Program-made: the position numbers and the translations under genes | The notes under the pieces: model-generated | Told to the model about the DNA's origin: nothing | What the model saw: only the letters and a program-made list of their open reading frames with translations | Database searches by the model: none | Assembly: GCF_044647545.1 (NCBI RefSeq) | Contig: NZ_CP172818.1 | DNA: 64,000 nucleotides | Source: Escherichia coli | GTDB lineage: Bacteria; Pseudomonadota; Gammaproteobacteria; Enterobacterales; Enterobacteriaceae | Direction: 5' to 3' (one strand) | Shown here: one piece after another, positions 21,017 to 21,824 of the stretch | Numbering within the stretch: position 1 is the first letter of the stretch | How the letters are laid out: each line of letters opens with the position of its first letter

Positions 21017-21824
21017 TAGTTCATCCCCAACCAGTGGAGGATCTCCTGTCCATGGCTATCGTAAAGTAATTTGGCACTCATCACCGCCGAGACGATAACG
21101 ATCATCGGGCGGATCAGCTTTTGTCCTTTGCTCAACACCAGTCTTGACCCCATGCGCGCGCCGAGGAACTGTCCTACCAACATCACAAATCCTGTCGCCC
21201 AAATCACTTTGCCGCCGAGAATAAACAGCAGCAAACCACCGATGTTTGACGTTGCGTTGAGTAATTTGGCGTGGGCCGTGGCTTTGGCGAGGTTGAATCC
21301 GCACAGCGTAACAAAGGCCAGCGCGTAAAACGACCCAGCAGCCGGGCCAAAGAATCCATCGTAAAAACCGACGCAGCCCCCCGCCACCAGCGCAAATGGC
21401 AGTCCATACATCCGGCGCTGGCGATCTTCTTCTCCCAGTTTTGGCATCAGCAAAAAATAGAGGCCGATACAAATCACCAGGATCGGTAAAATCTGCCGTA
21501 AGACATCGGCCTGAACATACTGCACCAACAGCGCGCCGCTCATTGAGCCGACAAAGGTCATGGCGATATTGAGTTTCTGATCGCTTAAGCTAACCACTTT
21601 GCGCCGAATAAAGTAGATAGTGGCGGAAATAGAGCCGCCGCAGGCTTGCAGTTTATTAGTTGCCAGCGCGTTAGCCGGAGACATCCCCGCCGCCATCAAT
21701 GCCGGAATGGTGAGTAACCCACCGCCACCGGCAATCGAGTCGATCAATCCCGCCAGCATGGCGACAAAAAGAGAACTCCCAGCAACAGCGGGGAAACCAT
21801 AAACAGGCTATTAAACGTTTCCAT
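21016..21824 (-). pseudogene. yfcA: TauE/SafE-family membrane protein YfcA, apparently frameshifted
   Basis: ATG at 21824 (overlapping the mepA stop) encodes [19 protein letters not shown], then the frame switches at an A5/T5 run (21766-21770) into the 247-aa ORF 21016..21759; the two parts sum to about 269 aa. Confidence 0.7.

Follow-up and report, generated by a model that had tools for sequence, protein, structure and literature searches.

Does the organism behind this chromosome carry a broken yfcA gene, and, if so, is any transporter still made from it? The locus lies in the window, by which we mean the whole stretch of 64,000 nucleotides that was analysed (E. coli contig NZ_CP172818.1; all coordinates refer to the window), and is occupied on the minus strand by a TSUP/TauE-SafE family transporter gene that is written with a frameshift of 1 nt (yfcA; 21016..21824). 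We consider the shortened T run at which the frame breaks to be an assembly artefact, with a probability of roughly 0.8, and the missing T is probably present in the organism.

The gene order on the minus strand of this E. coli chromosome is aroC-mepA-yfcA-epmC-yfcL, and a gene cluster containing yfcA is named in PMC11878033. The ATG of yfcA overlaps the TAA stop codon of mepA (21824..22648; TAATG, with base 21824 common to both), and the ATG of epmC (20468..21016) overlaps the TAA stop codon of yfcA (TAATG), which implies that translation of epmC is coupled to that of yfcA. As written, the frame of yfcA breaks at codon 20. A leader ORF of 26 codons runs from the native ATG (21744..21824); its first 19 residues are the N-terminus of YfcA and are followed by 7 out-of-frame residues and a TGA stop codon. 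Residues 23-269 of YfcA are encoded by a 247-aa ORF (21016..21759), the first start codon of which is an internal ATG corresponding to Met-23 (21757..21759). The sole Shine-Dalgarno-like element 5' of this ATG is GGGAG (21776..21780), which is separated from it by a 15-nt spacer that appears too long for Shine-Dalgarno function, so that Met-23 would be without a usable ribosome-binding site. The T homopolymer itself (21766..21770; A5 on the plus strand) has five residues, and addition of one T in silico yields a protein of 269 aa. The preliminary description of this DNA had reported a coupled start at 21824, a hydrophobic leader that leaves the frame of the 247-aa ORF, and a split that a single added T would repair to give a protein of ~269 aa; these elements are all present in the sequence, and the split is indeed a 1-nt length difference in the T run relative to orthologues.

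The nearest complete genome is that of ST648 (CP008697), which is 99.955% identical over 24.4 kb (window 1006-25421) with 4 mismatches and 2 gaps. Its yfcA has a T6 run and is annotated as intact (810 bp, 269 aa), and in other genomes that share the T5 state of the window the gene is flagged in RefSeq as a 'frameshifted' pseudogene. Over the 247-aa ORF, the alignment with ST648 contains a sole difference, F27L. It results from a second change private to the window, which the preliminary description did not mention: a gene-strand T to G substitution at 21745 that converts codon 27 from TTT to TTG.

Orthologues from 17 other Enterobacterales genera are 265-270 aa long and have the N-terminal extension in a single frame; restored YfcA is 77-89% identical to orthologues across the Enterobacterales. 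In these orthologues conservation reaches at least 90% at P12, L15, F19 and A22, and position 23 is occupied by Leu in 12, Val in 1 and Met in 4. In a broader alignment of 78 sequences, reaching down to 33% identity, Met is found at position 23 in 6, columns 13-22 are gap-free and L18 is present in 74; position 23 is preceded by 11 or more residues (median 16) in each of the 77 homologues. Judged by these alignments, the long form is the conserved form of the protein and Met-23 is no conserved initiation site. Against the Pfam TauE profile (PF01925; gathering cut-off 32.6), the intact form scores 166.5 bits (1e-48, residues 18-253) and the 247-aa ORF scores 161 bits over profile positions 6-237 of 237, that is, 232 of the 237 positions. 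As a TSUP member, the gene as written is without a continuous ORF across the N-terminal hydrophobic segment that precedes the AG-x-x-D-x-x-A-GGGG motif.

An AlphaFold (AF2) model of restored YfcA was built from the 78-sequence alignment (pLDDT 94.3, pTM 0.90). The model shows a 4+4 helix repeat, in which TM1 and TM5 are broken, and a predicted UppP/BacA-like fold. A short helix (2-8) comes first, helices 12-32 and 35-45 are separated by a break at G33-G34, and helices 142-158 and 163-175 mirror this arrangement in the second repeat. A sequence search found no solved relative of YfcA; the best solved-structure matches by Foldseek were BacA/UppP (5oon and 6fmt), with a TM score of ~0.6. A broken-helix, UppP-like fold has been predicted for YfcA in PMC4602095, with which our model agrees, and literature searches on E. 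coli yfcA yielded structure prediction and operon context but no functional study. According to the model, a product initiated at Met-23 would keep 10 of the 21 residues of helix 12-32, which is TM1a, the first half of the broken TM1. If the T5 run were real, yfcA would most likely be null, and loss of the translational coupling of epmC would be expected to follow. The preliminary description had left the choice between initiation at Met-23 and an inactive gene. Of these two options the second is much better supported, given the unconserved Met-23, the long Shine-Dalgarno spacer, the N-termini of the homologues and the loss from TM1; the choice itself omits the assembly artefact, which is the best-supported reading.

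The distribution of the T5 state among E. coli genomes argues for such an artefact. T6 is present in more than 99% of E. coli; among 5,426 complete genomes of the species, at least 4,031 contain the exact T6 66-mer and 44 (~0.8%) the exact T5 65-mer (with TTT at codon 27). Neither the T5 run nor an internal start (Met-23 in 4 of 17) is thus common to orthologues, and the pattern that would have refuted the preliminary description is not seen. The 44 T5 genomes form ~12 runs of consecutive accessions, the oldest being CP127297 or CM142664. Many genomes in the collection are older than these, as far as accession number serves as a proxy for date, and none of the older ones has T5. The T5 state therefore tracks submission batches and not lineages or descent. 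In the batch that comprises CP172816 (BS-01), CP172817 (HS-01) and CP172819 (BS-04), all three genomes have T5, together with differing mepA and epmC alleles, and the three are unrelated strains (batch chromosomes of 4.494, 4.513 and 4.520 Mb). Further frameshifted genes lie within 40 kb of yfcA in BS-01, BS-04, 613 and UID2309220033. A T5 assembly labelled 'C600' (NZ_CM181231.1) has folC annotated as frameshifted (32594-33861 in the coordinates of that locus, not of the window); folC is an essential gene, and this assembly is therefore likely to be error-prone. The protein product of the T5 allele was found mostly on Mb-scale contigs, some of which also have a split aroC, mepA or mnmC.

Other observations on the T5 carriers count against an artefact. 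In Ch1 and HS-01, yfcA is the sole frameshifted gene in 40 kb, and T5 is also present on one 61-kb Logan contig. The T5 product is indexed on many short contigs as well, and some T5 alleles may accordingly be real. In Logan ERR1023200, the T run is lost altogether through a deletion of 11 bp (GTTCTCTTTTT), which again leaves the 247-aa ORF from Met-23; this may be a genuine natural knockout of the yfcA N-terminus.

The contig that carries the window is itself irregular. All differences private to the window fall within 20153-32421. A block at 25421-27674 (yfcO-yfcR) is of K-12/HS-01 type: most of its 100-bp tiles are 100% identical to HS-01/C600, with one tile matching HS-01 only, and it meets 100% ST648-type flanks at sharp junctions. 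At this site ST648 has a 2-kb insertion (AAA-ATPase and hypothetical) and divergent fimbrial genes. Within the block, yfcO (split into fragments of 134, 69 and 63 aa), yfcP and yfcQ are interrupted by ~10 small indels, most of them deletions of 1 bp. A second, 3.8-kb block after tRNA-Arg (42504-46342) is a fragment of the K-12 cryptic prophage CPS-53 (yfdN, yfdP, yfdQ and yfdR; ~95% identity to K-12) and is missing from ST648 and MS 21-1. A private 6-bp deletion (gene-strand AATGTG; 20153/20154) directly follows the yfcL stop codon and coincides with the point at which the ST648-type and K-12-type intergenic sequences diverge. In the sixA-yfcV spacer, a noisy patch of 130 bp (32292-32421) contains ~20 differences, mostly 1-bp indels. 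More than 1,200 genomes from diverse lineages agree among themselves here, and all show 85.5% identity to the window. The patch is unlike the K-12-type spacer and looks like unpolished raw-read sequence. A further 1-bp deletion is found at 31949.

The yfc usher gene has two private nonsynonymous changes (28695 and 29992-30001), in the second of which an A to C change at 29996 turns CCCCACCCCC into a C10 run, and the resulting 883-aa allele (WP_400164285.1) was found on the window contig only among ~15 billion proteins. This is the sole private allele of its kind, as Frc, YfcJ, MnmC, the fimbrial subunit and FadJ are common alleles in the window and it is the ST648 reference that carries a private state. 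The source contig measures 4.50 Mb, as against 5.0-5.3 Mb for complete ST648-like genomes in the collection, and a 4.5-Mb chromosome for an ST648-like strain fits a loss of strain-specific DNA.

The contig is thus a chimera, with an ST648-like backbone and K-12-type sequence where the strain differs structurally from K-12. Taken together, these marks are those of noisy reads assembled with K-12 as a guide or as a source of patches, and not of natural recombination. A natural recombinant from an unsampled donor was considered for each of the two damaged segments and rejected, for the patch at 32.3 kb because it matches nothing and its 1-bp indels are scattered, and for the block at 25.4-27.7 kb because it is tile-wise identical to K-12/HS-01 with isolated clusters of indels. 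On circumstantial evidence, the window contig also appears to be the fourth genome of the batch CP172816-CP172819. Over window positions 42300-46500, which include the CPS-53 block, BS-04, BS-01 and HS-01 are three of the four best matches among the 5,426 genomes, and the WP number of the private usher allele neighbours those of proteins novel to the batch (WP_400165587, WP_400165594 and WP_400168279).

In HS-01 (NZ_CP172817.1), the proteins yfdC, yfcQ, mnmC, fabB and yfcJ have near-consecutive accessions from WP_203030238 to WP_203030245. This suggests that HS-01 differs very little from a single earlier K-12-like genome rich in private variants, and that genome could have been the reference used for the batch.

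Several features of the window itself speak against an assembly error in yfcA. Outside 20153-32421 the contig is essentially perfect, with 1 mismatch and no gaps relative to ST648 in 17.7 kb. None of the 17 A/T runs of 7-8 nt present in 53.9 kb is damaged, so that a generic error model in which long homopolymers decay first was rejected, and an error in the shorter T run of yfcA would have to be context-specific. The yfcA segment is moreover of ST648 type, which indicates an origin in the reads and not in a K-12 reference. Finally, the private substitution at 21745 lies only 21 nt downstream of the T run. A private SNP would seldom fall so close to the indel by chance (roughly 0.3-1%), which hints that the two are linked; noise in the consensus at this spot, a mutational event common to both changes, or coincidence could account for the proximity. 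When the paired changes were inspected by eye for a quasi-palindrome or template switch, neither was found to improve a local inverted repeat.

The substitution at 21745 has consequences for the reading frames. The stop codon of the leader ORF, a TGA at 21746-21744, arises from it and sits 13 nt past the ATG of Met-23; with TTT the leader would be 42 codons long. A GATC site arises as well. None of the 5,426 complete E. coli genomes combines T5 with TTG, and the 45-mer of this combination had no match in GTDB species-representative genomes. The exact 247-aa product was absent from the gene-position index and was found on a single contig in the protein index. The intact F27L protein occurs in six independent public assemblies, each of which has T6; codon 27 is CTT in three of these, TTA in two and TTG in one. 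The intact F27L protein might be taken as proof that the G is inherited, an argument that is weakened by the presence of three different codons, with TTG alongside T6 in just one other assembly. Recurrence of F27L is to be expected given the number of E. coli samples and implies no selection. The F27L-encoding assemblies support T6 as the state of related sequences and are weak evidence for an inherited G.

We therefore return to the assembly artefact, which is favoured by several lines of evidence: the rarity of T5 and its clustering by batch across unrelated strains, the other frameshifts of error-prone T5 carriers, the probable membership of the window contig in one such batch, the chimeric and indel-damaged state of that contig, the occurrence of T6 in all six F27L assemblies, and the undamaged remainder of yfcA in the window. 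An artefact would be expected to follow submission batches and to be accompanied by independent signs of mis-assembly in the same contig, and both are seen here. A genuine pseudogene would be expected to show its lesion in close relatives or in independent data of the lineage; here ST648 and all six F27L-encoding assemblies have T6, and the exact 247-aa product is confined to one contig. In the proposed course of events, a T6 run would have been under-called in the consensus of the source assembly, itself reference-guided or patched from noisy reads, and a read or consensus error would be the cause of T5. The real strain would have a normal yfcA of 269 aa, with translation starting at the native ATG coupled to mepA.

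A recent and real -1 slippage in the T6 run, by which yfcA would have become a young null pseudogene, takes the sequence as written and is, in our estimate, unlikely. Ribosomes would stop after 26 codons and leave ~740 nt of yfcA largely untranslated, and expression of epmC (and yfcL) may drop through lost coupling or polarity. The read-derived, ST648-type origin of the yfcA segment and the intact longer A/T runs are consistent with this course of events, and natural N-terminal lesions of yfcA exist, such as the deletion in Logan ERR1023200. The gene would be dispensable insofar as RefSeq genomes tolerate the annotation, and, as the N-terminal 22 residues are conserved and appear to be required structurally, a product without them would be defective. 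Against real slippage stand the batch-wise recurrence of the same T5 in unrelated strains, the chimeric, indel-damaged contig, the T6 run of every F27L-encoding relative and the lack of any further decay in yfcA.

A real frameshift could also be rescued, with ribosomes reinitiating at Met-23 after the leader TGA to make a 247-aa transporter and to re-couple epmC. With the private G the leader is 26 codons long instead of 42 and ends beside the internal ATG, the two changes are in close proximity, the product covers nearly all of the TauE profile, and Leu-27 is found in 10 of the 78 family members. We nevertheless consider reinitiation very improbable: position 23 is Leu or Val in 13 of the 17 orthologues and rarely Met in the wider family, the sole Shine-Dalgarno-like motif is 15 nt upstream, every homologue has 11 or more residues before position 23 with gap-free columns at 13-22, the modelled truncated protein would retain less than half of helix 12-32, and all of the arguments for an artefact apply here too. 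Highly doubtful as well is an extended version, in which the T6 run at codons 19-20 would be a recurrent slippage hot spot, the frameshift real, and the T to G change a second-site adaptation that promotes termination-reinitiation; if true, it would provide a truncated TSUP protein and re-coupled translation of the EF-P hydroxylase gene epmC.

A regulated change of frame, by a phase-variable T run or by a ribosome or RNA polymerase slip at CUC-UUU-UUG, has next to no probability in our view, since, even though both run lengths are found on more than one sequence background in public genomes and slipping by -1 on UUU-UUG would bring back the wild-type peptide L-F-F-V-A-M, phase-variable tracts are typically at least 8 nt long and vary in length within a lineage, whereas this run, at 5-6 nt, falls far short of known contingency or transcriptional-slippage tracts and varies batch-wise and not by lineage, the site C-UUU-UUG is no canonical X-XXY-YYZ heptamer, and the orthologues are simply in frame and thus do not conserve the two-frame layout and slippery site of a programmed frameshift.

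As this frameshift recurs batch-wise in ~0.8% of complete E. coli genomes in RefSeq, surveys of pangenomes or pseudogenes should not score it as gene loss, and other oddities of the window (the broken yfc fimbrial genes, CPS-53, the usher allele and the small genome) are to be read in light of the K-12 blocks. The biological weight of the locus is very small, and it is ordinary under every reading: YfcA is an uncharacterised, non-essential transporter, for which one strain-specific null allele would be routine.

Set beside known systems, restored YfcA is a full-length member of the TSUP (TauE-SafE, PF01925) inner-membrane transporters; yfcA as written departs from these in having no continuous frame, as its largest ORF is without residues 1-22 and half of TM1a. 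With programmed frameshift genes such as prfB, dnaX and the IS3-family transposases, the locus has in common two overlapping frames at a U-rich site, but the shift in yfcA is not conserved, no canonical slippery heptamer and no known stimulatory element accompany it, and an in-frame gene is the norm. Young slippage pseudogenes likewise show a -1 change in a mononucleotide run with the remainder of the gene intact; unlike these, yfcA T5 tracks sequencing batches and not descent, and independent F27L assemblies are intact. A further comparison is with the homopolymer indel errors of long-read or reference-guided assemblies, which PGAP annotates as 'frameshifted'. The run in yfcA differs from these in being only 6 nt long while longer runs in the window are correct, but it shares with them the loss of 1 base in an otherwise perfect conserved gene, recurrence in unrelated strains of the same batches, and the company of frameshifts and noisy patches nearby.
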